DNA of 29,070 nt from a virus, in the IMG/VR virus record IMGVR_UViG_3300010274_000145. One strand, given 5' to 3'. Shown here in pieces: positions 5,378-28,091 of the stretch. The position numbers and the translations under genes were made by a program. Every line of letters starts with the position of its first letter. Positions within the stretch are counted from its first letter, which is position 1. Below the pieces are notes generated by a model. It was given only the letters and a program-made list of their open reading frames with translations. It did not search any database and was not told the DNA's origin.

Positions 5378-5815
5378 ATGGCGGTCCAGAAAAAAAAGAA
5401 ACCAAAGAAGAAAACTTCTGAAAATTCAAATAAATTAGAAGTTTTTACATGGACTCCAAAAAGAAAACAAGCCGCTCTTTTACTATCTGAAGGCACTAAA
5501 ACTTATGAAGAAGTCGCTGAAGCGGTTAGAATCCATATTTCAACACTCTGGTTATGGAGACAGAACGATATTTTTTTAAAAGAAGTTGACAGGCTCACTT
5601 TTGAAAACGAGAAAGCAACTAGGGCGGGAATTCTAAGAAAAGCTCTAAAAGCATTAGATATCAAAGAAAATAACATTTCCGAAGATAAAAATACATTCCT
5701 CGATTATCTGGAATTTATTATTAAAATCATTCCTGAAGATACAAAAGACGACGACGATAAACTCAATGCTCTTGCAGAAGCAATTAAACAGAGTGCAAAG
5801 AAGGTAGGAAAATAA
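5378..5815 (+). CDS. terS: Terminase small subunit (N-terminal HTH)
   Basis: WTPKRKQAALLLSEGTKTYEEVAEAVRIHISTLWLWRQNDIF is an HTH. TAATG-coupled to the large terminase. ATG 5378 follows AAGGTG. Confidence 0.8.
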   Translation: MAVQKKKKPKKKTSENSNKLEVFTWTPKRKQAALLLSEGTKTYEEVAEAVRIHISTLWLWRQNDIFLKEVDRLTFENEKATRAGILRKALKALDIKENNISEDKNTFLDYLEFIIKIIPEDTKDDDDKLNALAEAIKQSAKKVGK

Positions 5816-7080
5816 TGGCTTTCACTCCAGGACTTTTCTCAGAAAAACAGCTTGACGTAATGGCTAACTGTACAGCCAACGTCAATATTCTTGAGGGGTC
5901 TGTACGATCTGGAAAAACAATAGCTTCTCTTCTCGCGTTTATCACAGCTTTGGCAGACTACCCCAAAGGGGTAAATATCCTGCTAGCAGGGAAAACTACT
6001 AGATCTCTTTTTAGAAATATAATCAAGCCACTTGAGGATATAGTAGGGAAAACGTATACTAAATTTAAACTCGGTATAGGGGAAGGGACTATTTTCGGCA
6101 GGTCCTTCTATGCAGTAGGAGCAAACGATGAGAGAGCATATACAAAGATACAAGGGCTTACATTAAGCTTGGCTTATGGCGATGAGGTAGCAACATGGCC
6201 AGAAAGCTTCTTTAAAATGCTTCTTTCTAGGCTTTCAGATTTTAACGCTCGATTCATAGGGACAACTAACCCAGAAGGCCCATATCACTGGCTCAAGGTT
6301 GAATATCTCGATAGAGAAGAAGAACTCGATTTAAAAAGCTGGCATTTCAATCTAGAAGATAACCTCAATCTTCCAAAGGCCTACGTGGAAAACCTTAAAA
6401 AACTCTATACCGGTCTATGGTTCAAGCGGTATATCCAGGGGTTATGGGTACTAGCCGAAGGCACAGTTTATGACATGTTCAATGAAACGTATCACGTCAA
6501 AGACATTACAAAAGAAACATGGGATAACTGCATTTCAAAATACGTTTCGATTGACTATGGCACTATAAACCCATGCGTATTTCATTTATGGGGGGTTTCT
6601 GAAGGCAAACGATATCTAAAAAAAGAATACTACTACGATTCTAAGGTAAAAGGCAGGCAGAAAACAGATAAAGAATTCGTGGCGGATCTTAAAGAATTCA
6701 TAGGTGAAGATAAAATAAAGTATGTAATTGTCGATCCTTCAGCAGCATCTTTTAAAACCGAATTACGGGAAAACGGGTTTCATGTAGTAGATGCAATAAA
6801 CGACGTTCTAGACGGTATTAGAGCAACGTCGAAAGAATTGATGGAGAAACTTATAATTATTGATAAGTCTTGTATAAACACAATTATGGAATTCGGAGGG
6901 TACGTTTGGGACGTTAAAGCGTGTATGCGGGGGGACGAGAAACCACTAAAACAATCAGATCACTGTATGGATTCGTTAAGGTATTTTATAATGACGGTTC
7001 CTTTGAAACCTGTCATCTCTTATGCTTATGAAACATCATACGTCGGGACTTCATACAGTTCAGGGAGCATGAGAATTTAA
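5815..7080 (+). CDS. terL: Phage terminase large subunit, PBSX-like
   Basis: Walker A GSVRSGKT, Walker B AYGDEVA, coupling motif GTTNP, and RNase H-like nuclease residues (SIDYG, IVDPSA, DHCMDSLRY). Confidence 0.95.
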   Translation: MAFTPGLFSEKQLDVMANCTANVNILEGSVRSGKTIASLLAFITALADYPKGVNILLAGKTTRSLFRNIIKPLEDIVGKTYTKFKLGIGEGTIFGRSFYAVGANDERAYTKIQGLTLSLAYGDEVATWPESFFKMLLSRLSDFNARFIGTTNPEGPYHWLKVEYLDREEELDLKSWHFNLEDNLNLPKAYVENLKKLYTGLWFKRYIQGLWVLAEGTVYDMFNETYHVKDITKETWDNCISKYVSIDYGTINPCVFHLWGVSEGKRYLKKEYYYDSKVKGRQKTDKEFVADLKEFIGEDKIKYVIVDPSAASFKTELRENGFHVVDAINDVLDGIRATSKELMEKLIIIDKSCINTIMEFGGYVWDVKACMRGDEKPLKQSDHCMDSLRYFIMTVPLKPVISYAYETSYVGTSYSSGSMRI

Positions 7081-7154: not shown

Positions 7155-7325
7155 GTGAAAAAAAGAAAATTCAAACTTGAAAAATACGAAACCCCCCGAG
7201 ACATAACTATAAAAAACGTAGTCTACGAAACAGCCGGAACCGTAACAGACCGAGGGTTTGTTTATGTCTCATCACTTCCAGAATTCAAAGGAAAGAAGGT
7301 GATAATGTTAATTCAGGATCAATAA
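7155..7325 (+). CDS. Small DUF2080-like (AbrB-fold-like) protein (56 aa; not in ORF track)
   Basis: GTG after GGAGGTG. MKKRKFKLEKYETPRDITIKNVVYETAGTVTDRGFVYVSSLPEFKGKKVIMLIQDQ resembles the archaeal DUF2080 pattern VxExxxT...P.e..GKKV..li. Confidence 0.65.
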   Translation: MKKRKFKLEKYETPRDITIKNVVYETAGTVTDRGFVYVSSLPEFKGKKVIMLIQDQ

Positions 7326-7942
7326 CCCTTTCTCAATTAATCTGTAAGTCCAGAAACATCCAGCCAGACCAGGGCAACATACAAGGAACTTGTGTTTATT
7401 GCGGTCTGCCTACGGACCGCGGTCACAAATTCGAGCCCACCGGGCAATTCACAACCTATCAACTCATTCTAGGCGGTTCCTGTATATGTCCAGAGTGCAA
7501 TGTAATGAAAAATAGCCAGGATTACAGGCGGTCAATGTGGACCGTAAACCCAGACGAATTCCGACCATTCAAACAGGTTGAAGCTAAGAACATCTTACAA
7601 AATCCCCCAGAGCCTCCCTTTGTAATGTACTTTACCCAAACATGGAAAAAACAAGGATGGCCTGGACTTGTAAACCGGGTAAACACAGATAAAAATTATT
7701 TCATAGTTGGATATGATTACGAACTTGTTTTAGTCGAGGCTGGAAAAAGGGATAACTATCTAGATTTTGCTCAGTCCTTGATTGATAGAGGACTAAATAA
7801 AACGGAATTGTTAACAGGAGAACTCAAAGCGAAGTCATATGATAAAATCGATTTTTCCGAGGCTGAACGACTCAAAGAACTATCCAATGATCCCCTTTGG
7901 GATTTATGTGTTTATGTTACGAGGAAGAACTATGATAAGTGA
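7322..7942 (+). CDS. csf1: Type IV CRISPR Csf1 (Cas8-like) large subunit with N-terminal Zn finger; apparent ATA start
   Basis: The frame is open upstream of ATG 7505 and encodes (I/M)TLSQLICKSRNIQPDQGNIQGTCVYCGLPTDRGHKFEPTGQFTTYQLILGGSCICPECNVMKNSQ, with CxxC...CxxC. It is first of the four effector genes. Confidence 0.75.
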   Translation: MTLSQLICKSRNIQPDQGNIQGTCVYCGLPTDRGHKFEPTGQFTTYQLILGGSCICPECNVMKNSQDYRRSMWTVNPDEFRPFKQVEAKNILQNPPEPPFVMYFTQTWKKQGWPGLVNRVNTDKNYFIVGYDYELVLVEAGKRDNYLDFAQSLIDRGLNKTELLTGELKAKSYDKIDFSEAERLKELSNDPLWDLCVYVTRKNYDK

Positions 7943-8255
7943 AACTCACGAAAAGTTAGGCGAGCTGGTTGCAGCCGTTTATAAAAAAGTAGACTGGAAG
8001 AAACAGACTTCACTAAAAAGAAGTGCCTTAGACATCTTAACAGACCGTTTAAGAGTAGCAAGCCACGAACCAGACGTAATAAGAGCATTTGAGAAGTTAT
8101 GTGCTTCTCTGCATATCCCGAATGCTAAAGTGGACGCGGAACTCTTAACAGGACTATACTACCAAAAAGATTCCATGGAGATATTGAGAGAGCAAACTGG
8201 ATATATTGCCCTATTAGGACAGAAAAAAGCAAAGGAGCTAAAACATGAAAACTGA
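7932..8255 (+). CDS. cas11: Cas11-like small alpha-helical subunit (type IV-B)
   Basis: ~107-aa helical protein (LTDRLRVASHEPDVIRAFEKLCASL) between csf1 and csf2. Start moved to ATG 7932. Confidence 0.68.
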   Translation: MISETHEKLGELVAAVYKKVDWKKQTSLKRSALDILTDRLRVASHEPDVIRAFEKLCASLHIPNAKVDAELLTGLYYQKDSMEILREQTGYIALLGQKKAKELKHEN

Positions 8256-9090
8256 ACATATCCACGGGCATATAATCGCAATTACTCCAATCCATCACGG
8301 AGGAGATGAAAGCACAGGCGCAAGAGCTACACTTCGCAGGATGAAATACCTTGTAGACGGAAAGCGCGTGGAAATCCCGGTAATCTCTGGAAACGCGATA
8401 AGGGGAGTCCTTAGACGGCTTATAATGGCTCACATGCTTGAAACGCTAGGCTACGGGAAACGGACAGAAGAAGGAGAAGCTGACGACAGAATGAAGTCGA
8501 TGAAAGCTTATCATATGCTCTTTTCCGGGGGAACGCTTGAATCAGTCGAGGATTCCGGAGCTATTGACCTGGCACTCAGGCGAGAATTAAGAACATCATT
8601 GCCTGCGCTTTCGGTATTTGGTTCTGCAATCGGAAACCAGATGATAGAAGGGAAGATGAAATGCGGAATCGCCGTTCCTGTATGTACCGAGCTTGCAGCT
8701 TTCCAACCCGGAGAACAGGCAACGAACTCAATATATGAACTTCTCACTGACGATTTCACTACAAGAAAAGATGATCTACACGGAGAACGTGAAGAAGGAG
8801 AAGCAGCCCATCAAATGATTGTTAATTTTGAGTGCTTCGCTCCTGGCACTACATTTGTGCATAAGTTCAGCCTGCTTGATTGTACAGAGGTAGAAAGGGC
8901 CATACTTGATAAGGCCCTGCAACTGTGGACAGCTAGGCCCTACATAGGCGGGAAATCCAGTATAGGATATGGAGAAGTTAAGTTAAGCTATCTATCGGAG
9001 TATCACACTGAAGCTTATGATAGATTCCTCGTGGAGCAGGCAGATAAGATGAGAGCAACAATTGAAAAAATAGAAGGTATCCTGGGATGA
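8245..9090 (+). CDS. csf2: Type IV CRISPR Csf2 (Cas7-like RAMP backbone subunit)
   Basis: AITPIHHGG, IPVISGNAIRGVLRR, SVFGSAIGNQMIEGK and C-terminal IGGKSSIGYGEV glycine loop. Confidence 0.92.
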   Translation: MKTEHIHGHIIAITPIHHGGDESTGARATLRRMKYLVDGKRVEIPVISGNAIRGVLRRLIMAHMLETLGYGKRTEEGEADDRMKSMKAYHMLFSGGTLESVEDSGAIDLALRRELRTSLPALSVFGSAIGNQMIEGKMKCGIAVPVCTELAAFQPGEQATNSIYELLTDDFTTRKDDLHGEREEGEAAHQMIVNFECFAPGTTFVHKFSLLDCTEVERAILDKALQLWTARPYIGGKSSIGYGEVKLSYLSEYHTEAYDRFLVEQADKMRATIEKIEGILG

Positions 9091-9818
9091 ACCTTGACGA
9101 AATAGAAGAGAGATTACGGGCGTTCACCCCGAATCCCTCTGTTTTTAGGCCATTTAAGGCGGTTTTTCACATGAGTACGCCTATATCATTAGCCCATCCC
9201 TGGATTAACGGTGATGCTCTTATATCTGTCCCTTTGTTAAGAAGCCTTCTAGGAGAAGATTATTACACGCTTCCTACAAAGATGCCTATCCCAATGGATG
9301 AGCTTCTTAAACTGCCTCTAAAACGTTCACATGGGGTTTATCACGCGTCGGCTTCGATATTTGATACTGATAAACTCTTTTTAAATACTTTTTACAAGAG
9401 ATTTGATACTGAGAACGTTGACTCCTATGTAAAATCTAAGAAAAATAAGATTCAACGAGGGCAGGGATTTTTTAAGGATTGTATGGTCAGGTCGCCCTAT
9501 AAACCATGCAAGGAAGTTACATTTTATTTTAATGGAGATCTTGCTCTATGTAAAAAGCTTCTTGAGGCAGTCCCGGCACTTGGCAAGGATCGAGCGAAAG
9601 GGTACGGCATAATAAACCGGGTTGAAGTTACAGCAGAAGCCACAGATAAAAGCCTGTTTGATGGTGATATTTGTATGCGTCCGATACCATTTAAGGCGAT
9701 TCAGTATAGAGGGATTCCTGAACATACCATGCAGCTAACTTATAAGATTCCTTATTGGGCAAGGAATAAGGCGACTATGTGTTGTGTGCCGGGGGCTAAG
9801 ATTCTTTTTTCTAATTAA
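9087..9818 (+). CDS. csf3: Type IV CRISPR Csf3 (Cas5-like RAMP)
   Basis: FKAVFHMSTPI...GDALI, LPL...YHASA, FYKRFD, VTFYFNGD...LGKDRAKGYGII glycine loop, RPIP. Follows csf2. Confidence 0.88.
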   Translation: MNLDEIEERLRAFTPNPSVFRPFKAVFHMSTPISLAHPWINGDALISVPLLRSLLGEDYYTLPTKMPIPMDELLKLPLKRSHGVYHASASIFDTDKLFLNTFYKRFDTENVDSYVKSKKNKIQRGQGFFKDCMVRSPYKPCKEVTFYFNGDLALCKKLLEAVPALGKDRAKGYGIINRVEVTAEATDKSLFDGDICMRPIPFKAIQYRGIPEHTMQLTYKIPYWARNKATMCCVPGAKILFSN

Positions 9819-9845
9819 TTTCCTTTTTTCTAGTATCGATACCTA

Positions 9846-9885
9846 TATATATGATAGTACACATACTAGTATATATGATAGTACA
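9846..9885 (+). promoter_or_regulatory. 16-bp direct repeat TATATATGATAGTACA overlapping the promoter/start of the second insert operon
   Basis: Copies at 9846-9861 and 9870-9885; the second contains ATG 9875. Preceded by an oligo-T tract after csf3. Confidence 0.55.
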
Positions 9886-10039
9886 AGAAAATTCTAGCAC
9901 AGGTGCTTTAGTTATCACTATACCGAAGGCTATCGCGAAAGCCAAAAAAATAAAAAAAGGAACCAAAGCTGAATGGGTACTGGATGATAACGGTAAGCTG
10001 TTTTTAGAGGTAGATAAACGTGAAACAAACAACGCTTGA
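9875..10039 (+). CDS. AbrB/MazE/SpoVT-family DNA-binding protein
   Basis: SSTGALVITIPKAIAKAKKIKKGTKAEWVLDDNGKLFLEV is the swapped-hairpin signature. Confidence 0.85.
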   Translation: MIVQENSSTGALVITIPKAIAKAKKIKKGTKAEWVLDDNGKLFLEVDKRETNNA

Positions 10040-10676
10040 AGATATACAACCTTCCTTAATAGACCGGATAAAAGCAATAGCTCAAGAGGCTTCGAACCTT
10101 CCATTAGAAGAGAAGGTCAATTTCCTGAACGAAGCCCGCCGGATATTACACGAAATAAGCCCTTTCTCATTCGAGCCTATAGATTTCGTTGAATGGGTCC
10201 CGGCTGAAACCTTAAAGGCTAACGGCTGGAATCCTAACCACATGGCAGACAATGAAAGAAAAATGTTAGTCGGTTCCATGAGAAAATACGGCATGTCTCA
10301 GGCAATTGTTTCAATGAAAGAAGGTAGGATAATAGACGGCTGGCATAGGAATTACACCGGAAGTACTGACCCTGTATTATCTGAGAGGATGTATCATTAT
10401 CTTCCTAGAGTCTGCATAGAAGGCGACGAAGCTGACCAGAGAGAAGCTACCTTACTTTTCAATGAAACAAAAGGCAAGCACTACGTAGAGAAGGAAGGAC
10501 AGGTTATCAGGGAACTGGTAGAACTTGGACGGGCAGACGAAGAACTATCAAAGAACCTGGGGAAATCATCTGAAGAACTTGTAAGGCTAAAACAGATAAC
10601 CGGGATAGCTGCAAGATTCGCAAATAAAGAATATAGTAAAGCATGGGGTGAACTTGATGAAATGGAAATACGGTGA
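10020..10676 (+). CDS. ParB/Srx-domain protein, IbrB-like
   Basis: WVPAETLKANGWNPNHM...LVGSMRKYGMSQAIV...IIDGWHR...ATLLFNETKGKH. Confidence 0.88.
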   Translation: MKQTTLEDIQPSLIDRIKAIAQEASNLPLEEKVNFLNEARRILHEISPFSFEPIDFVEWVPAETLKANGWNPNHMADNERKMLVGSMRKYGMSQAIVSMKEGRIIDGWHRNYTGSTDPVLSERMYHYLPRVCIEGDEADQREATLLFNETKGKHYVEKEGQVIRELVELGRADEELSKNLGKSSEELVRLKQITGIAARFANKEYSKAWGELDEMEIR

Positions 10677-11304
10677 TTCATGGGAGAAATACCCGATAGA
10701 AGAGGGTGAAATCTGGCAAGAGCCATTCAGTCAGTCAAGAATAGCAGTTGCAGACCTCAGAAATGATTTACCTTTCGAGATCGAAGCCGAAATGGTCTAT
10801 ATGGATTCTCCCTGGAACAAAGGGAACGTGAATTCATTTATCACGAAGGCAGGGATGAACAGTTACATAGATTCATTTGAAAGTTTTATGGATTGTCTTT
10901 TCGATAAAATTAAACATATTGGGCCTGAAGTATGTTATCTTGAAATCGGAAAGCAACATAAGCAGGATTTCATAGGCAGATTAAACCAACTTTTCCCCAT
11001 CGTGCAGGACTGGCAGATCACATATTATAAGAAAAATCCGTGTTACCTCCTCCGAGCAGGTGAAAACGTTTTAGAGCAAGACTTTACAGGACTTGACGAC
11101 GAAGTAACACCTTACAGGGCAATAATGTTTGAACAGCCCGGAAGTGTTGCAGACCTTTGTACTGGAAGAGGGCTTACACTTCTCGCAGCTCATAAATTCG
11201 GTGCTAAATTCTATGGAACAGAACTTAATAAAAGAAGATTGGCAGTAGCAATAGACCGAGCAGCAAAGGCAGGTGTTTTCTATGAAAAGTGTAACCTTCA
11301 CTAA
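10657..11304 (+). CDS. SAM-dependent methyltransferase-like protein (amino-MTase beta-type motif order)
   Basis: MVYMDSPWN (motif IV-like, DSPW rather than DPPW) precedes VADLCTGRG (motif I) and FYGTELN. Start ATG 10657 after GGGGTG. Confidence 0.72.
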   Translation: MKWKYGDSWEKYPIEEGEIWQEPFSQSRIAVADLRNDLPFEIEAEMVYMDSPWNKGNVNSFITKAGMNSYIDSFESFMDCLFDKIKHIGPEVCYLEIGKQHKQDFIGRLNQLFPIVQDWQITYYKKNPCYLLRAGENVLEQDFTGLDDEVTPYRAIMFEQPGSVADLCTGRGLTLLAAHKFGAKFYGTELNKRRLAVAIDRAAKAGVFYEKCNLH

Positions 11305-12076
11305 ACATCCAGAGAACTTAGTCTTTGATCTTGAAAGGTCCGCGTGTGTCTACCATAAACAGTATGCAAAGAAGTTACCAAAAATACCAGACTGTGAATT
11401 TATAGAGTTTGAAAAGTTGTGCCAAACCTTCCAAACTCAGGATTACTTCTCTGGGAAAACAGCTGTCGTTTTCGTAGGTCTTAACAAGATGTTCACGACT
11501 TCAACTCGCTTTCATCCAGTCTGGGACCTGCTACAATATAATATGCCTGCTGGAATACAAAAATATTGTGTTGATATCGCTCCATACATGGGCCCACTCT
11601 GGAGGATCTGGCCGCACTTCAACTTGGCAGGAATCCAGACAGGAGAGTACACTTATAGTTACCTCCTGGAATCACATTATAACGCTTTTCTCGAAGGAGT
11701 ACGGACAGAAAACCCTCTATCAATTGAAAATATCAAAGAATGGGCTGCTGGAAATGTGCAGATTGACTATGATAAGTATTTCTCAGAGCCAGAAATAAAA
11801 ATTATAGAAATGTCTGCCGATGTTCACGAAGGATACCAAACTCTAAAAGCTGACCTATTTGAAACGTATGACAGCATCCAGCCAATATTAAAACAGTTGA
11901 CTGCCTACGCAAAAGAACACTGTAAAGAACGGAAAATACCGCAGGAATTCAAGATCTTTGAAACTCCCGAGAATGTCCAGATAATCAGAACAGACCTAAA
12001 AATAGATGAATATCTTACCGGTAAGTTAGTTACCAAAATGGAAGAGGTCAATAACATCGTGGAGGCCTTACAGTGA
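11282..12076 (+). CDS. Hypothetical protein (possible degenerate SF2/SNF2 ATPase lobe)
   Basis: ORF coupled on both sides, GCAGGTG RBS. Only a weak fold resemblance. Confidence 0.7.
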   Translation: MKSVTFTKHPENLVFDLERSACVYHKQYAKKLPKIPDCEFIEFEKLCQTFQTQDYFSGKTAVVFVGLNKMFTTSTRFHPVWDLLQYNMPAGIQKYCVDIAPYMGPLWRIWPHFNLAGIQTGEYTYSYLLESHYNAFLEGVRTENPLSIENIKEWAAGNVQIDYDKYFSEPEIKIIEMSADVHEGYQTLKADLFETYDSIQPILKQLTAYAKEHCKERKIPQEFKIFETPENVQIIRTDLKIDEYLTGKLVTKMEEVNNIVEALQ

Positions 12077-13155
12077 TTAGATATTGGGATATCTCCGTTT
12101 TAGAAGCTGCAAGACTCCGTATAGCAAAGGTATTTGACGAGTTCGAGAATATCTTTGTTTCAGTATCTTCTGGCAAGGACTCAACAGTTCTTTATCATCT
12201 CTGTTTAGAGGAAGCTCAGAAGAGAGGCAGGAAGATTAAGTTATTTTTCCTCGATCAAGAAGCAGAATACGAAGGGACCGTTCAGATAATGCGGGAAATG
12301 ATGAAGCACCCGCTTGTAGAACCTTATTGGTTTCAGGTTCCTATCCGAATGACCAATGCGACATCATACGATCAGCCTTTCTTATACGCATGGGGTCCGG
12401 GTGAAGAATGGTTAAGACCTAAAGAAGAAATCGCTATAAAAGAAATCAAAGAGGACTATCCAAAAAGATTCTATGACTTCTTTGATTGGTTCGAGCAGCA
12501 GCAGACCGAGAAAACAGCTTTCTTCGTAGGGCTTCGCTCTAAGGAGTCTATGAACAGGTTTAGGGCCGTCACGAAAAACCCTGGATATGACGGGATTCCG
12601 TGGAGTACAAAGACGAAAAATGAAAAGTGTTTCAGGTTCTATCCTATCTATGATTGGACATTCGGTGACATCTGGAAGTACATAGCAGACAACGAGATCC
12701 CGTACAATCCAGTGTATGATAAAATGTACTGTCTGAAAGGGAAAAGCGTAAACGGTATCAGGATATCAAACCTGATCCACGAGAAATCCTTTGCTTGCCT
12801 GTCCGAGCTTCAGGAGATCGAGCCGGAAACTTATGAAAAGTTGTGTAACAGGCTTAAAGGGATTCATGCAGCCGCGAAGTATGCTAGGGAATCAATGATG
12901 TATCAGGCTGAAGAGCTACCAGGAGCTTTTCAATCATGGAAGGATTACAGGGATTACCTGATAGAGTCCTCACCTATGGAAGAAGCTCACAGGGAACGAC
13001 TTAAAAAGAGGTTCTCGAAACAACCAGATGTAGACTCGATTCACCGCCAGCAATGCAGACAGGTACTTTTATGCGACTACGAAAACAACCTGCCTGTTAA
13101 TACGCAGGCTATGAAGAAGGAAGAATTACGGGCTAAATGGTGGAATGTCCTGTGA
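12073..13155 (+). CDS. PAPS-reductase-family (PP-loop) protein, IbrA/YbdN-like
   Basis: SVSSGKDS PP-loop, FLDQEAEY, FVGLRSKESMNR, YPIYDWTFGDIWKYI, YNPVYD, RISNLIH. Confidence 0.9.
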   Translation: MIRYWDISVLEAARLRIAKVFDEFENIFVSVSSGKDSTVLYHLCLEEAQKRGRKIKLFFLDQEAEYEGTVQIMREMMKHPLVEPYWFQVPIRMTNATSYDQPFLYAWGPGEEWLRPKEEIAIKEIKEDYPKRFYDFFDWFEQQQTEKTAFFVGLRSKESMNRFRAVTKNPGYDGIPWSTKTKNEKCFRFYPIYDWTFGDIWKYIADNEIPYNPVYDKMYCLKGKSVNGIRISNLIHEKSFACLSELQEIEPETYEKLCNRLKGIHAAAKYARESMMYQAEELPGAFQSWKDYRDYLIESSPMEEAHRERLKKRFSKQPDVDSIHRQQCRQVLLCDYENNLPVNTQAMKKEELRAKWWNVL

Positions 13156-13829
13156 AACAAACGAACTTACAAACCTTCGGGAAGCCTCCACTCCCACGAG
13201 GTTACTCTCCTTCCCACATTCTCACGTATCGAAGATGTGAATATAAATTCCTGTTGGCATTTATTTATAAAGTCAAAGTGGAAACTAAATTTCAGCCACT
13301 ATTAACAGGGTCTTCGATACATGAAGACATTTCAAAGGGCATTTTTACATCCGAAGCCCCAGAAAGACAAAAAATGTTAAATGTTGCACAGGAATTCCTT
13401 TCAGAAATGCCGGCAAATCCGATATTTGAAACGACTTACGAAGACCCAAATAACCCAGGAATATTCAGAGGGATGATTTTTGGAAAACCGTTCATAGGAA
13501 TATTTGATGCTCATTGGGTCGAAGAAAGACAGGGCGTAGACTGGAAAGCAAGCAAGCATAACGAAAAATACGACAGTGATTATGAGATTCAGGCGTACAT
13601 TCTGAATGAATTATTCAAGCAGAAGTACAAACACAACTTGAGGAAGTTCACATTTGTTTTTCTGAAGGATGGTTTCAGATATGAAGCCCAGTCTATATAC
13701 AATGGAGCAGTACGAAACAGGACTGAAAAAAAGATTAAAAGTGCTCTAGATGGCATCAGTAATTACGAGTTCAAAAAGAAAAGATCATACGCTTGCCAAT
13801 GGTGTGAGTGCAAGGGGCTTTGTATATGA
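13152..13829 (+). CDS. Cas4/AddB-like PD-(D/E)XK nuclease with putative Fe-S cluster
   Basis: YSPSHILTYRRCEYKF, GSSIH, GIFDA...VDWKAS, QAY, and C-terminal CQWCECKGLC (1+3 Cys). The GTG start overlaps the upstream TGA. Confidence 0.85.
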   Translation: MKQTNLQTFGKPPLPRGYSPSHILTYRRCEYKFLLAFIYKVKVETKFQPLLTGSSIHEDISKGIFTSEAPERQKMLNVAQEFLSEMPANPIFETTYEDPNNPGIFRGMIFGKPFIGIFDAHWVEERQGVDWKASKHNEKYDSDYEIQAYILNELFKQKYKHNLRKFTFVFLKDGFRYEAQSIYNGAVRNRTEKKIKSALDGISNYEFKKKRSYACQWCECKGLCI

Positions 13830-13951
13830 CTGAGGAAGGGCCGTGTTTCCGATGCGGAGAATTGACCGATTTTCACAGCTACCAATCGGAGAGGGGCGAA
13901 ACTAAAACATATTATTGCTGCGAAAAATGCGAAGACGAGCTGAGAAAATGA
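13826..13951 (+). CDS. 41-aa zinc-ribbon microprotein (not in ORF track)
   Basis: MTEEGPCFRCGELTDFHSYQSERGETKTYYCCEKCEDELRK with CxxC...CxxC. ATGA overlaps at both ends (13826-13829 and 13948-13951). Confidence 0.75.
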   Translation: MTEEGPCFRCGELTDFHSYQSERGETKTYYCCEKCEDELRK

Positions 13952-14643
13952 ATCCAATAGATAAAGAAATGTACCTGATGTACGCAGAAACAGACGAATA
14001 CCAAGAAGCCGTAAGGCAACTTGAGGAGAACGTTTCTAAGGCGTTTTCTGAGTACTCTAATCCTTACGTTGCCTATTCAGGAGGGAAGGACTCTCTTGTA
14101 ATGTCTCATGCAGTCTTGCAGGAAAACATAGACACTTTAATTTTTCATTGGGATTATGGGCCGTATTACATGCCTAGAGAACTGGAAAAAGAAGTAATTG
14201 ATATGGCGTATAAGATCGGAGCTAAGAACATTAGAGTAGATAGTACAGAAGTATATAAGCAGAAAAAGAGAGAGGCTATAAGTGTTTTAGGCAGGATGCT
14301 CTATGGTAGAGTACTACCAGGTTTGAAAGCAGAAGGTTACGATTTATCCTTTGTTGGACTTCGAGCTCAGGAAGGATGTAAACGAGCTAAACGGGTATCA
14401 GACTTATTTGAAAATGATTCAGTACTGCCTAATTGTTTTCCAGTCCGTCATATGAAAGCGAGAGACATTTGGGCTTATATAGTCAGCAATGATTTACCTT
14501 ACTGCTCTCATTATGACAGGTACGCTTCACTTATTGGATACGAAGAAGTAAGATTCTGTACTTTCTTTGATAAAGAGTTTGATAAGTACGGGAATTCTAA
14601 TTTAGATGGCGTTTTAATGACTCAATTTAAAAATGTTTTTTAA
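13948..14643 (+). CDS. CysH-like PAPS-reductase-family protein (type IV-B-associated type)
   Basis: YVAYSGGKDS, FVGLRAQEGCKR, FPVRHMKARDIWAYIVSNDLPY. No C-terminal ECG motif. Start moved to ATG 13948. Confidence 0.88.
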   Translation: MNPIDKEMYLMYAETDEYQEAVRQLEENVSKAFSEYSNPYVAYSGGKDSLVMSHAVLQENIDTLIFHWDYGPYYMPRELEKEVIDMAYKIGAKNIRVDSTEVYKQKKREAISVLGRMLYGRVLPGLKAEGYDLSFVGLRAQEGCKRAKRVSDLFENDSVLPNCFPVRHMKARDIWAYIVSNDLPYCSHYDRYASLIGYEEVRFCTFFDKEFDKYGNSNLDGVLMTQFKNVF

Positions 14644-14679: not shown

Positions 14680-16476
14680 ATGCCTTTCCCTAATTTCATA
14701 TTTTCAGCTTCCCCAACTCCACAAAATGACCCCCAAACAACTACCGTAGGCGCAAGCGTAGCAGCCGAACGCGAACAATTTACCTATCATTCCGACATCT
14801 TAAAATGGATCTCAGAAACCAAACACAAACTCCCAAAAGCAACCCCTTCACTCCGAAAAGAAGCATTCCTAGCCGACCCCATGATAAGCGGGACTATTTA
14901 TCCATACCTAAAAAACGTACTTCTCAAAGACTATAAAATTATCACAAGCGATAATAAACTCTATTCAGAAGCAATTGAAGAAATTACCGACTATCTCGAA
15001 AGTCTTAAAATAATGAAAGTCTTCCGAGAGGACTTTCTGGACTATGCCTTTTTAGTTGGTCACTCATATAGGAGAGCTGACCCAGATAAACAGGGAAATA
15101 TTGCAAGTCTCGGACGGCTGGACCCGGCAAGTATGGAAGTGTACGAAGATCCCTGGGACAGTTCGATTATCGCATACCACCAGAAAGCCCAGGTCAAAAC
15201 GTCATGGTCACAGATGAGTACAACGATAGACGTCGATAGTTGGTTTATCCCATTCGGCGCAGATATCCCGAATATTTATGATACATGGGTCCAGGACAGG
15301 GAAACCGGAAACAATTCGAAAGTCTATGATCTGTTCGAGACTTATAAAACAAAATATTCAATAAGTGACATTAACAACCTGAGAATAGGCTCATCTGAGC
15401 GTATTTTTGCAATGCATAACACAGATGTTAAATATACTCAAACTTCAGATGATGATTACAGGGAAACTTATAATCCTGCACCTATTGATTCCGTACTACT
15501 TGCGGTCTGGCTTAAGAGACTTCTATTAGTCAACAGTCCAAATTTAATTTATGTTGTTCTCAGTCCTTTCCTTCATTTGATTTCCGGAGTTCTAAAAGAA
15601 TCAAAAGATGCTCTAGGGAACCCTGTAATTATTACATCAAATCCCAGGAAACCGTCTTCAGCATTGCAAACCGATAATCCGGCTCAGTATGCTGCAGAAT
15701 TAGCGAACTTTGAAGCCTGGGTCGCTGCCATGAAAGACGCTTCCAAAGGACTTATCCAGAGTCTTAAGGATGGCGGAGTTTTCGCTTCAGGCCCGGATCT
15801 GCAAATAAAACCCGTCGAATCTTCAAGAACTGTATCTTTCCAGCTTATCCAAGGCCTTATAGCAAATTTGAATGAAGAGATTTGTTTAGGGTTCGGGCTA
15901 CCAATTGCCTTAATTTCTGCAAAAGGTACGGAGCTGGCTTCTTCACGAAATATAGTCCAGGTATTCAATAATATTCAAGCAGGCAAACGTACAGATTATG
16001 AAGCTCTTGCAGACGACTTAATTAAAAAACAGTTTGCCGGTAAAAAATGGACTGTCAAAACTGAAGAAGGAACTGTAACATATTCATTTGAAGATATCAA
16101 AGCTCATTTCATCTTGGAAACTCCTGATACGAAAAACCTCAAGGAAGAAGCTGAAACTCTCAAACTCAAAGCCGAAACACTCGTACAGGTCAAGGCTCTA
16201 GGAGGCTCTCAGGCAGACGTACAGGCTCTAGGAGATGAGTACGGCTTCGGGCTATTAGGATTGGACAACTACGAGGCTGCTATTGAGCCACAGACAGCAA
16301 CACAGGTTAATGCAATTTTGAAAGCTTGTCTATTAAGTGTCATGGAGGAGCAGGGGTTAATTTCTGCTTCTCCGACTGCGCCGAGCGGATTTGATGAAAA
16401 AAAGGTAACTAAGAGGCTGAAAGAGGCTTACGAGACTGCAAAAGAAACGATGGACGAACTTTTTGAGGAGCATTAA
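14680..16476 (+). CDS. Phage portal protein (probable)
   Basis: 598-aa protein in the portal slot: after terL (ignoring the insert) and before MuF. Mixed alpha/beta. Assignment is mainly positional. Confidence 0.7.
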   Translation: MPFPNFIFSASPTPQNDPQTTTVGASVAAEREQFTYHSDILKWISETKHKLPKATPSLRKEAFLADPMISGTIYPYLKNVLLKDYKIITSDNKLYSEAIEEITDYLESLKIMKVFREDFLDYAFLVGHSYRRADPDKQGNIASLGRLDPASMEVYEDPWDSSIIAYHQKAQVKTSWSQMSTTIDVDSWFIPFGADIPNIYDTWVQDRETGNNSKVYDLFETYKTKYSISDINNLRIGSSERIFAMHNTDVKYTQTSDDDYRETYNPAPIDSVLLAVWLKRLLLVNSPNLIYVVLSPFLHLISGVLKESKDALGNPVIITSNPRKPSSALQTDNPAQYAAELANFEAWVAAMKDASKGLIQSLKDGGVFASGPDLQIKPVESSRTVSFQLIQGLIANLNEEICLGFGLPIALISAKGTELASSRNIVQVFNNIQAGKRTDYEALADDLIKKQFAGKKWTVKTEEGTVTYSFEDIKAHFILETPDTKNLKEEAETLKLKAETLVQVKALGGSQADVQALGDEYGFGLLGLDNYEAAIEPQTATQVNAILKACLLSVMEEQGLISASPTAPSGFDEKKVTKRLKEAYETAKETMDELFEEH

Positions 16477-16478
16477 TA

Positions 16479-17309
16479 ATGCCCTTCCTATCCAACTTCT
16501 CAAAATCCCTAAAAAAAGCCTTCTCTCAAATAGAAAAAACTCAAGCTGAAGCCCTGGCAATTGAAATCTCTGCGAATTTCATAGCAGGCCGGACAGCAGG
16601 AGAGAAACATAAATCTATTCAATCAGCAGAGCCTGAAGACCCTGAAGACGAAGGTTTAACCGAAGAAGAAAAAGCAGAAATTGCCGTGCTTGCTGCCCTA
16701 TACCTCGGCTACCTATCAAAATTCAATGACATAGCCCAGGCTCAAATCCTAACCACAACAAAGGAGATCATTGACCAGGCAGGCGGGCAGGTCACGCCGG
16801 AAGTCCAGGACGAAATTAAGAAGAGGCTGGATGATGTACTGGACGGGCGGGAAAAAGTGGTCATTGATAATGTCGGGAAGGTTCGCAAGGAACTGTATGT
16901 AGATAAGAACTTAAAAATTTCCGAAGTTGAGAAGGTTATTACGAAGAAATATTCAGCATCGGTGAAAACTTATTCTGAGTTATTGGGAGAACAGGCGAGT
17001 CATGCGAGTTATGAAGCAGGGAGGAAAGCGCAGCTTATAGGGCAGGGCTTTGATAAGTGGGTCTTTGTCGGGCCTGCCGATGAGAGAGCACGCCCCTGGC
17101 ACGTTGCCCTTTTGGGACAGGTATTTACATGGAATACAGAGCAGAGCTCTTACGCTGAAAGATGCCTGCAGGAGCCAAGGTGCAGACACAGAGCAGCTAT
17201 TTGGTATGGGGATCCCAAGAAGGACACACCAAAAGAGAAATGGGAAAATTTAAAAAATGATGCTGGACTATACTGGGATGACAACGCCGAAACATGGGCG
17301 TTAAAATAA
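16479..17309 (+). CDS. Head morphogenesis / minor head protein (SPP1 gp7 / Mu gpF-like)
   Basis: KWVFVGPADERARPWH...QEPRCRHR motif after a helical region; directly follows the portal. Confidence 0.82.
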   Translation: MPFLSNFSKSLKKAFSQIEKTQAEALAIEISANFIAGRTAGEKHKSIQSAEPEDPEDEGLTEEEKAEIAVLAALYLGYLSKFNDIAQAQILTTTKEIIDQAGGQVTPEVQDEIKKRLDDVLDGREKVVIDNVGKVRKELYVDKNLKISEVEKVITKKYSASVKTYSELLGEQASHASYEAGRKAQLIGQGFDKWVFVGPADERARPWHVALLGQVFTWNTEQSSYAERCLQEPRCRHRAAIWYGDPKKDTPKEKWENLKNDAGLYWDDNAETWALK

Positions 17310-25834: not shown

Positions 25835-25924
25835 ATTTGCGGGGGGTGGCTGCCAAAAATTAATTAATTTCTTTTTCCATTTTTTCACACATGGCAAGTT
25901 TTCCGTTTTCGGTTTCATCTTTTC

Positions 25925-26320
25925 AGGATATATGTATATCCCATTTCCTAAGGAACTACTTTTTAGATAGCTTATTAAGAAATAGTTTTCTTTGTTGTCT
26001 TTTTCTTGCATGTTTATAAATTTGTGTAGGGAGTTAATAAAGATATGTGTATATTACGTTTCCTAAGGAAAGTATAAGCAATTAACCCGGAGCAAGATTT
26101 AGGGATGTGTGTATATCTCATTACCTAAGGAACTTACTTTTAGATAACACTAGAAAAAAAAGAAGAGTTTTATCCAAAATACTTTAGTTAATTATATATA
26201 CTATTAATCTCATAACTCTACAACATGACATTTAAAGAGAAAATGTAACAGACATTAAAGAGAGAGCATTTGCCCTCTCTTAATATTGCTTTCCTTAGGA
26301 AATCAGATATATGTATATCC
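25925..26320. other. Probable Cdc6/Orc1-dependent replication origin (ORB-like boxes around an AT-rich segment)
   Basis: TTCCTAAGGAA at 25945 and 26060, TACCTAAGGAA at 26122, and an inverted copy TTCCTTAGGAA at 26291. Each has a (G)TRTRTATAT(C)-like flank. AT-rich stretch ~26140-26280. Confidence 0.7.
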
Positions 26321-26325
26321 ATGTT

Positions 26326-27561
26326 TTACTGTAAATTCATTAGATAGTTTCTCGCTGGAACGTCTGCAATATCACTTAATGTAAAGTCCTCAAAAAGAGC
26401 TCTTTTTACTAGATCCTTAGAGGCGATCTTTGCAACTACCTTTTTCCTTCCATATCTCCCTTTAAAAAGCTTTGACTCTTCAATTATCCCAAGCTGATTC
26501 AATTCAGAAAGGAGATCATTCATTCTTCTTTGAGTGAGGATATCCATACCAATATCGCTACATATCGCTTTATACACTGAATAAATATTATTTGTATTAC
26601 TTTCTTTAGGAGTATCATCCATGTAAATACATGCGAGCAGGGTAGATTTGGACTGCGTGGGAAGGGTTTTTACTACCTCGATAATCCTATCCATTTCAAG
26701 TTTATCATGTGCAGCTCTCACATCTTCTTCTTCAATAACGGAGTGTTTCTTCGATTCTGCAATTTCCCCGGAAACTCTCAAGAGGTCAATAGCCCGTCTT
26801 ACATCCCCATGTTCCTGCGCAGCATACGCAGCACATAGAGAGATTACGTCCTGAGGCACTACATCAGGTTTAAATGCTATTTCTGCCCTGGCTCTCAGGA
26901 TGTCAGTTAATTGTAAGGCATTGTAAGGGTTTATTATAAGCACGTTCTCACAGAGAACACTTTTTAAGTGTGGCGGGAACCTATCTCTTAATCCTAGATC
27001 GTTTGTAATTCCTACAATAGTCGGAAACTGCCCGGAAGCTTCCGATTCGGTTCTTATTATCTTGTTGATCATTTCAGGATTTACGGCCTTATCAAGTTCA
27101 TCGAGAATGATTATTATTATTCCTGAGTAGTGATTTATCAAATACTTCAGGTATTCACTATGCTTAGAGGTTGAATTCCCTATAACTCTTCTTGGCTCAT
27201 CTGAAGGGATTTCCCGCACAAGTCTCTGTAAAATAGAGTGTTCTGTTCTGAGTTCGTCACAGTTGATATTTATAATACAGAGTTCTATTCCTCTTACTTC
27301 TGCTTCTCTTTTAATTTCTTCAAAAATAAGAGTAGTTAATGCAGTTTTCCCAAGCCCAGGCTTTCCATATACAAATACATTGGAAGGAGAAACCCCATAA
27401 AAAATATCTTTTAGGTATTCAAAATAGGTTCTTATTTCGGCATCCCGGTGCAGGATATTATCAATACTCCCTAATGCATAATTAGGTTTTACAGCATTCT
27501 TATTTTTAAATAAGTTATTACCCGATTCCAGTATTTCAGCCAATGTAAATTTAGGTGTCAT
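26326..27561 (-). CDS. cdc6: Cdc6/Orc1 replication initiator (AAA+ ATPase with C-terminal wHTH)
   Basis: ILHRDAEI, Walker A YGKPGLGKT, Walker B IILDELD, FPPHLKS, PYNALQLTDILRARA, GDVRRAIDLLR, wHTH LTQRRMNDLLSELNQLGII...GRYGR. Confidence 0.96.
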   Translation of the reverse strand: MTPKFTLAEILESGNNLFKNKNAVKPNYALGSIDNILHRDAEIRTYFEYLKDIFYGVSPSNVFVYGKPGLGKTALTTLIFEEIKREAEVRGIELCIININCDELRTEHSILQRLVREIPSDEPRRVIGNSTSKHSEYLKYLINHYSGIIIIILDELDKAVNPEMINKIIRTESEASGQFPTIVGITNDLGLRDRFPPHLKSVLCENVLIINPYNALQLTDILRARAEIAFKPDVVPQDVISLCAAYAAQEHGDVRRAIDLLRVSGEIAESKKHSVIEEEDVRAAHDKLEMDRIIEVVKTLPTQSKSTLLACIYMDDTPKESNTNNIYSVYKAICSDIGMDILTQRRMNDLLSELNQLGIIEESKLFKGRYGRKKVVAKIASKDLVKRALFEDFTLSDIADVPARNYLMNLQ

Positions 27562-27571
27562 ATATCCAAAT

Positions 27572-27690
27572 CTCCTTAGGAAACGATATACATAATATGC
27601 TTAGGAAATATTTAAGTGTTATGATTTTTTCCGAAGGAATATTATACGCTTCTGATAATGGTCTCCTTAGGAAATGAGATATATACATAC
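27572..27690 (-). promoter_or_regulatory. ORB-like boxes in the cdc6 upstream region (probable autoregulation)
   Basis: CTCCTTAGGAA at 27572 and 27663 with GATATA(TA)CATA flanks; partial copies at 27599 and 27629. Confidence 0.6.
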
Positions 27691-27879: not shown

Positions 27880-28091
27880 TTTGGTTATACCAATTATAAT
27901 ATAACCAAACGTAAGTTATATATACTATTAGGTTGTATAGTATATTGCACAACCTATTAGAAAAACAGATAATAAAAGACCTAATAAAAGGAGATAACCA
28001 AACATAAGTTTTATATACTATTAGGTTGTATAGTATATTGTACAACCTAAGAGTAAAACAATAACAAAGCTATAACAAGGAGGAAACCAAA
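27880..28091 (+). promoter_or_regulatory. Repeated promoter/operator/RBS cassette, copies 1 and 2
   Basis: 56-bp core ATAACCAAACRTAAGTTWTATATACTATTAGGTTGTATAGTATATTGYACAACCTA at 27901-27956 and 27994-28049, each followed by an A-rich leader and AAGGAG. Confidence 0.85.

Follow-up and report, generated by a model that had tools for sequence, protein, structure and literature searches.

The virus record IMGVR_UViG_3300010274_000145 of IMG/VR carries a type IV-B CRISPR-Cas effector joined to an operon of putative nucleic-acid enzymes. The whole stretch analysed, 29,070 nt long with a G+C content of about 40%, is called here the window. Twelve same-strand genes lie between the genes for a large terminase and a probable portal protein: the four effector genes, a gene for a small AbrB-like protein, and the seven genes of an enzyme block at 10020-14643. 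Four genes of this block, encoding a ParB-like protein, a methyltransferase, an Snf2-like protein and an IbrA-like protein, constitute a core module that also stands alone in mobile elements. The module co-occurs with the csf genes and the CysH-like gene of type IV-B far above chance, and does so in many gene orders. To our knowledge, type IV-B is the only CRISPR-Cas subtype without a known function, and its CysH-like gene has been the only clue to date.

The effector genes and the enzyme operon

The effector genes are all located on the plus strand. The csf1 gene (7322..7942) encodes a Cas8-like protein with a zinc-finger N-terminus; TIGR03114 matches the 7505-7942 part (3.6e-5), and the Csf1 protein (Pfam PF27781) of a 110-kb archaeal contig, locus L007, aligns by tblastn with 79% identity over 7322-7942, in an open frame that includes the zinc-finger cysteines. 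The canonical csf1 ATG is gone: the ATG of L007 reads TCA in the window (7270-7510 region) and also in its near-identical twin G001, a 12.4-kb IMG/VR record with 95-96% identity across the region. The sequence suggests that csf1 starts at a non-canonical ATA at 7322, the probable start, or by re-initiation after a mini-open reading frame of six codons. The cas11 gene, for the type IV small subunit, is listed at 7839..8255 (PADLOC typeIV_Cas11, 3.3e-16), and its real start probably lies further downstream than that of the listed open reading frame (ORF). It is followed by csf2, encoding Cas7 (8245..9090; PADLOC Csf2_0_IV 1.7e-72, Pfam RAMPs 2.8e-10, TIGR03115 8.8e-16), and by csf3, encoding Cas5 (9087..9818; PADLOC Csf3_0_IV 2.5e-48, TIGR03116 4.3e-13). 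The PADLOC values for Cas7, Cas5 and Cas11 bear out the claim of the original prediction that the enzyme operon lies beside a genuine type IV-B effector.

Csf1, Cas11, Csf2 and Csf3 are thus encoded together, and a cysteine-less CysH-like PP-loop gene lies 4.1 kb from csf3 in the same gene string. No array-like repeats were found by repeat search in the 29-kb window, and profile scans of its ORFs identified neither Cas6 nor a DinG/RecD helicase. The locus therefore resembles known subtype IV-B systems, such as the Csf complex of Mycobacterium sp. JS623 (PMC7937560) and those of Fuxivirus and Mp_virus_41kb, in having all four effector genes and a cysteine-less CysH-like protein, in lacking a CRISPR array, Cas6, helicase and effector nuclease, and in being carried on a mobile element, which is in this case a tailed virus of archaeal type. 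It differs from them in that csf3 and the CysH-like gene are parted by seven further genes over 4.1 kb, among them those for another PP-loop enzyme, for proteins of the ParB-fold and Snf2-like types and for a methyltransferase. The accessories named for type IV-B in reviews and surveys are only cysH and, occasionally, an ADP-ribosyltransferase, and a search of one literature library found no paper linking IbrAB to type IV-B or describing the seven-gene block. Type IV-B with cysH has already been published for archaeal tailed viruses, in Fuxivirus (PMC10848311) and Mp_virus_41kb (bioRxiv 10.1101/2023.08.02.551345).

All seven genes of the enzyme block are present on the plus strand as predicted, apart from two corrected starts. 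Translational coupling is tight, because the gene junctions overlap by 4-29 nt; two of them are of the ATGA type. To the coupled seven-gene operon that had been described, an AbrB/MazE-like gene is added as eighth member. The identities originally proposed for the seven products, namely ParB/IbrB, methyltransferase (MTase), unknown protein, IbrA-like, Cas4-like, zinc ribbon and CysH-like, agree with profiles, folds and motifs.

The first gene of the block (10020..10676) encodes a ParB/Srx-fold, IbrB-like protein (phrog_2159, 1e-43). NxxNPN and DGxHR motifs are retained in its family, with DGxHR present in the window protein; Pfam ParB_N matches homologues of the protein and not the window protein itself. 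The next gene (10648..11304) encodes a compact protein that resembles beta-class amino-methyltransferases in its predicted fold (predicted local distance difference test, pLDDT, 94), with Foldseek matches to M1.HpyAVI (5.6e-7), TTHA0409, MboIIA and CcrM. Pfam N6_N4_Mtase scored 18.1 bits, under the 26.7 cut-off, and PADLOC gave only a partial mad2 match (1e-6) over the C-terminal ~48 residues. Motif I reads D-x-C-x-G-x-G, and its glycine pair is conserved in the family. The product is predicted from the model to have a beta-class N6A/N4C DNA methyltransferase fold. Some modules (L010, L026, L027 and L075; for example L026 7522-8795) contain two methyltransferase paralogues, with DPPW and EP[SA]W at motif IV, and one might speculate, by analogy with METTL3/METTL14, on a heterodimer of an active and an inactive subunit.

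The formerly unknown gene (11273..12076) encodes an Snf2/SF2-helicase-like protein of 267 aa, for which no family match was obtained in family-profile scans. Its predicted structure (pLDDT 95.4) aligns nearly full-length to Snf2-type ATPase cores, with a VIA Z of 12.9 to CSB over 254 aligned residues and ESM-Atlas template modelling (TM) scores of 0.72-0.74 to phage SNF2 helicases. An identity as Snf2/SF2 ATPase was rejected: the fold is alike, but Walker A (GxGKT) and DExH are replaced and the protein has just 267 aa. According to the model, it would be an inactivated Snf2-like helicase core. The family has 99 representatives among 1.84 billion proteins, all of about 250-300 aa, and 50,697 phage records contained no homologue. 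PADLOC has no model that matches the ParB-like, Snf2-like, Cas4-like or zinc-ribbon proteins.

Two PP-loop proteins are encoded in the operon. The IbrA-like ATP pyrophosphatase (12073..13155; phrog_2302, 1.7e-94) shows the architecture of IbrA, a 3'-phosphoadenosine 5'-phosphosulfate (PAPS) reductase domain followed by DUF3440 (PAPS_reduct 7.9e-20, DUF3440 8e-8), with PF01507 at 72 bits and PF11922 at 32.7 bits, each above its cut-off. In 58 sequences of this family SxGKDS and R155/E158/R162 are invariant, and one cysteine is conserved at 82%. The CysH-like protein (13948..14643; PAPS_reduct 1.6e-13), the type IV-B companion of the CasCysH type, most likely starts at the ATG at 13948, corrected from 13915, where it overlaps the zinc-ribbon stop as ATGA. 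Its family profile matches PAPS reductases of the PDB at 2.8e-21, and Cap9, a PP-loop relative, is among the PDB matches; SGGKDS and the R/E/R triad are invariant in 81 sequences, with no conserved cysteine. A complex prediction for the IbrA-like and CysH-like proteins, with alignments of 23 rows each, scored 0.10 against a mark of 0.32, which is evidence neither way. In locus L007 (12543-14231) the CysH-like gene encodes 562 aa and contains an intein (Pfam Intein_splicing) directly after the conserved RDIW motif.

The catalytic cysteine of the ECGLH motif is missing from both PP-loop proteins, as had been noted, and assimilation of sulfate, already held unlikely, is rejected. A true CysH was rejected also by its scores (TIGR00434/TIGR02057 18-36 bits against cut-offs of 165-254). 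Identity with DndC of the Dnd phosphorothioation systems was rejected as well, with TIGR03183 at 27 bits against 290, partial PADLOC DndC matches and cysteines that are not conserved; ORF scans of the window found no dndA, dndD or dndE partner genes. BrxP of BREX type 4 reached 24 bits only. Cleavage of ATP between the alpha and beta phosphates by the PP-loop proteins is plausible, and sulfonucleotide reduction or DndC-type sulfur transfer is not, because the loop and the R/E/R residues are invariant, the cysteines are not conserved and DndC scores are low. The sulfur-based pathway that had been considered is judged unlikely, because neither cysteines nor Fe-S ligands are conserved, a desulfurase is missing, and DndC remains far under its cut-off.

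Recurrence of the module and its link to the csf genes

The Snf2-like protein was used as probe to fetch 4 viral, 2 genomic, 61 metagenomic and 4 assembly loci, which were annotated with profiles iterated from the window proteins. In about 60 metagenomic loci the Snf2-like gene was always followed by the IbrA-like gene, and the MTase and ParB-like genes were nearly always alongside. All four module genes were found in 18, and three of them in 5, of the non-redundant loci flanked by 1.5 kb or more on each side. The proposal that the seven genes form one system was not upheld, since the core has four genes and stands alone in 7 of 15 well-flanked loci, and the zinc-ribbon gene has no homologue in the fetched loci. 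A search for the module in a genome collection yielded one solid match.

Of the non-redundant module loci, 15 have flanks of 4 kb or more on each side, and both csf genes and a CysH-like gene were present in 8 of these. At least five gene orders link the module and csf: csf1..csf3-module-CysH; module-csf1..csf3-CysH-Cas6; csf..CysH-module; csf1-MTase-ParB-unk-IbrA-CysH-csf3, where unk is the Snf2-like gene; and module-csf..CysH. The interleaved order, with the module between csf1 and CysH-csf3, occurred in four loci, with overlapping genes. In the tree of Snf2-like proteins two deep clades were resolved. The clade of the window is linked to csf in 17 of 18 loci with readable context, and the second contains mostly solitary modules with four separate csf links.

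The association was also approached from the effector side. A search of IMG/VR with a single Csf2 sequence recovered the twin contig only; with a Csf2 alignment, its relatives were reached, giving 79 further loci with mostly the canonical orders csf1-cas11-csf2-csf3-CysH or csf2-CysH-csf3. Eight of these (about 10%) have IbrA (405-451 aa) and ParB within the operon, always touching CysH, and the Snf2-like gene is present in only one of the eight. For comparison, any IbrA homologue occurs in 223 of 50,697 phage records. Conversely, csf genes were found in 3 of the 4 module loci of IMG/VR, where a Csf2 relative occurs in just 121 stretches of 2.9 million contigs.

A functional link of the enzyme operon to the csf operon, beyond mere neighbourhood, is supported because the block recurs beside or interleaved with csf and CysH-like genes in at least five orders, in line with the link that had been predicted. 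The module-csf link is facultative in both directions. As to the co-occurrence of csf2 with ibrAB, MTase and Cas4 genes, suggested earlier as a check, csf genes accompany 8 of the 15 modules, Cas4 is limited to the window's clade, and most type IV-B loci have no module.

The cassette from csf to CysH behaves as a single transferable block, and the module is an insertion relative to a simpler layout of the virus backbone, because L007 shares the cassette, and the related viral loci L078 and L079 share the backbone without 9700-14400. The overlap of L007, which has no virion genes nearby, with the window is limited to 7285-14634, a fragment of TnpB and a weak match to Cdc6; L078 and L079 share the csf genes, the 3' end of CysH and the portal-to-MuF genes. 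The full combination was also found in a cultured carrier, the haloarchaeal plasmid NZ_CP071309.1 of Actinarchaeum halophilum. Its csf1, cas11, csf2 and csf3 (69669-76523, locus L155) are all annotated in RefSeq as hypothetical, and type IV-B is therefore unannotated there.

The csf3/CysH junction is a variable slot in viral type IV-B loci (L076, L078, L085, L097, L118 and L121). Its cargo elsewhere includes a glycosyltransferase 2, a SpoU-like protein, an N6/N4 methyltransferase, Cas6 and LuxR, and one locus has a GNAT gene between IbrA and ParB. The varied transferases in this slot fit a modification theme. Cas6 is attached to two type IV-B operons (L008 8476-9195 and L105 11575-12273), after CysH in one and in the csf3-CysH interval in the other; no CRISPR arrays were found in these two loci or in L006 and L013.

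Possible functions of the cassette

The closest known relatives of the module are the IbrA/IbrB pair of E. coli prophages, with its paralogues YbdN/YbdM, and gp08/gp09 of Flavobacterium phage FCV-1, which share the PAPS_reduct plus DUF3440 architecture and a ParB-fold partner in the operon. The window IbrA-like protein is 46% identical to the FCV-1 protein, and the FCV-1 pair is likewise located between terminase and portal, but without csf genes. Other cultured phages also carry ParB and IbrA pairs. In the window, unlike in these pairs, the ParB-like and IbrA-like genes are parted by two genes, those for the MTase and the Snf2-like protein, and a Cas effector is attached to the unit. Dnd (DndB, DndC) and Dpd (DpdB, DpdA) systems similarly combine a ParB/Srx-fold protein with a nucleotide-activating or base-exchanging enzyme, in mobile or defence islands (PMC12839542, together with general knowledge), and DndC belongs to the same PAPS-reductase superfamily as the IbrA-like and CysH-like proteins. 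The window differs from both in having no conserved Cys/Fe-S set, DndA/D/E, TGT or restriction partner genes. The ParB-like ATPase DpdB and the ParB-like DndB load or hold enzymes on DNA in the Dpd and Dnd systems.

By analogy with these families, the cassette may be an ATP-dependent system for nucleic-acid modification, in which the four-gene module is wired into a type IV-B operon, a reading to which we give about an even chance of being correct. The two PP-loop enzymes would spend ATP on activating a nucleic-acid position by adenylation, perhaps in the element's own DNA or in an RNA held by the Csf filament, and the methyltransferase would place a further mark. Loading or holding the enzymes on DNA would fall to the ParB-like and Snf2-like proteins, in the manner of DpdB and DndB, and the nuclease-free Csf ribonucleoprotein would provide nucleic-acid binding or targeting. 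The likely benefit would be to shield the element from host defences, or to mark competitors. Enzymatic competence is favoured by the invariant PP-loops and R/E/R residues and by the intact fold and family motifs of the MTase.

Several observations weigh against such a cassette. Seven of the 15 well-flanked module loci have neither csf nor a CysH-like gene, and most loci of the 79-locus IMG/VR set lack the module, so that neither partner needs the other. The window also has no source of guide RNA, either as a CRISPR array or as Cas6. Three of the core proteins depart from expected motifs: the Arg-rich motif RHNRARGKH of the ParB-like family reads FNETKGKH in the window, motif IV of the MTase is DSPW in the window against DPPW in the family, and the Walker A and DExH positions of the Snf2-like protein read VG[AL]N[KR] and D-x-x-P-Y. 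Judging from these changes, some subunits may be non-catalytic. The modification step itself is drawn from family analogies. We know of no biochemical function for IbrA/IbrB, CasCysH or the Csf IV-B complex, and the only IbrAB phenotype known to us in E. coli is the activation of prophage gene expression.

This last phenotype leads to a different explanation, of low probability in our estimate, in which the module, the AbrB-like regulator and the nuclease-free Csf complex form a switch for viral or host genes with no modification involved. In its favour, IbrA homologues in phage records carry the label 'co-activator of prophage gene expression', and the first gene of the operon encodes a DNA-binding protein of the AbrB/MazE type. 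The ParB-fold and Snf2-like proteins are of DNA-binding types, and a LuxR-type regulator occupies the slot of another type IV-B locus. However, the invariant catalytic PP-loops of two enzymes and the intact MTase fold point to chemistry, the AbrB-like gene is limited to close relatives of the window, and the E. coli phenotype could itself be downstream of a modification. A virus-borne cassette might also serve anti-defence, with Csf sequestering host crRNAs or other small RNAs, the PP-loop enzymes inactivating these or the signalling nucleotides of defence, and the Cas4-like protein disturbing spacer acquisition by the host. Type IV-B complexes have been proposed to bind heterogeneous RNA and perhaps to neutralise crRNAs (PMC7937560; bioRxiv 10.1101/780106), viral Cas4 homologues were reported to lower spacer acquisition (PMC10848311), and the PP-loop relative Cap9 is among the PDB matches to the CysH-like profile. 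We nevertheless consider it improbable, as a DNA methyltransferase, a ParB-fold protein and an Snf2-like protein suit an action on DNA better than one on RNA or nucleotides, Cas4 is outside the conserved core, and the authors of bioRxiv 10.1101/780106 themselves judged that such a complex is unlikely to be an anti-CRISPR.

The link to DNA packaging that had been suggested is unsupported. The position of the block between terminase and portal may be a mere permissive insertion slot, and IbrAB-type and IV-B/CysH modules could have landed there as independent cargo that works separately. The solitary modules, the many type IV-B loci without one and the FCV-1 pair, set between terminase and portal with no csf, are as expected from independent cargo, and so are L078 and L079, which read terminase-csf-CysH-portal with other cargo in the slot. 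Interleaved orders with overlapping genes are, however, hard to obtain by hitch-hiking. The csf association is seen in both deep clades of the module and also on non-viral backbones (the L007 element and the haloarchaeal plasmid), the entire cassette moves as one block, and the enrichment exceeds base rates by several orders of magnitude. Independent cargo is for these reasons held to be unlikely.

The modification cassette can be extended to a more general proposal, in which Csf IV-B complexes would act as RNA-scaffolded platforms, recruiting exchangeable enzymes for targeted nucleic-acid modification instead of interference, with the window as the most elaborate form. This remains a tentative idea, which we would put well short of an even chance. 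On this view the enzyme sets would comprise PP-loop enzymes of the CysH-like and IbrA-like kinds and ParB-fold loaders, along with methyltransferases, glycosyltransferases, GNAT and SPOUT proteins. The presence of a four-gene enzyme module in type IV-B operons, together with the other transferases in the slot, narrows the hypotheses to ATP-dependent nucleic-acid chemistry. The pairing thus offers a lead to the role of type IV-B, with concrete proteins named and a cultured carrier at hand, and the widespread, uncharacterised IbrA/IbrB pair of phages gains a functional context.

Lineage-specific genes and the viral backbone

The Cas4-like, zinc-ribbon and AbrB-like genes are lineage-specific additions to the core. 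The Cas4-like protein (13137..13829) is a PD-(D/E)XK nuclease with Fe-S cysteines (PDDEXK_1, PF12705, 4.4e-10, 40 bits, above cut-off), and the Cas4-type cysteines (C33 and a C-terminal cluster), the DxK motif and QxxxY can be read from its sequence. Among the fetched loci, its gene occurs in the clade of the window only. As the window has no cas1 or cas2, it is of the stand-alone viral type. It resembles the SIRV2-type stand-alone Cas4 of archaeal viruses in the nuclease family, the four-cysteine pattern and the viral setting without cas1/cas2, but differs from it by lying inside a Cas effector operon, between two PP-loop genes. In L017 (2302-4473), a tandem pair of IbrA-like ORFs is located between the Snf2-like gene and Cas4, which may represent a duplication or a split gene.

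The zinc-ribbon gene (13826..13951) encodes 41 aa with a CxxC...CCxxC pattern. Its start was corrected to the ATG at 13826, most likely the true one, where an ATGA overlap joins it to the stop of Cas4. The fetched loci contain no homologue, G001 reads N across the region, and this is the least certain of the gene calls. The AbrB/MazE-type small DNA-binding protein (9875..10039) has 54 aa from the second ATG (PF04014 2.3e-5, 24.7 bits, equal to the cut-off), and its homologues among the fetched loci are in close relatives of the window only, at the same position. It is preceded by a 56-nt gap after csf3, the sole intergenic gap between csf3 and the accessory genes, which holds two tandem 24-nt repeats with TATA-like runs (9831..9878; repeat search, family D5), each with TATATATGA at its end. 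These repeats are a possible TATA-box or operator for the accessory genes.

The window is assigned to an archaeal-type tailed virus or provirus because it encodes a T4-type large terminase (5815-7080, profile match), a Mu-F-like head protein (16479-17309), a beta-helix protein, a HerA-like ATPase and Cdc6/Orc1 (26326-27561, minus strand); the probable portal is at 14680-16476. Relatives of the window proteins are labelled Methanobacterium, Methanosarcinales and Methanocaldococcus plasmid. Many other viral type IV-B operons also have a large-terminase gene no more than a few kb away (L077, L079, L080, L113, L114, L117, L118, L121, L127, L131, L135 and L145), detectable only with a profile built from the window TerL; this proximity may mean that the site is preferred for insertion or that the two are functionally linked. 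An open-ended ORF at 2-178 has 71% identity (tblastx) to a TnpB/IS605 OrfB gene at the edge of L007. Repeats occur on both sides of the Cdc6/Orc1 gene, in families at 25921-26146, 27571-27685 and 27901-28060, and resemble the origin-recognition boxes of a replication origin.

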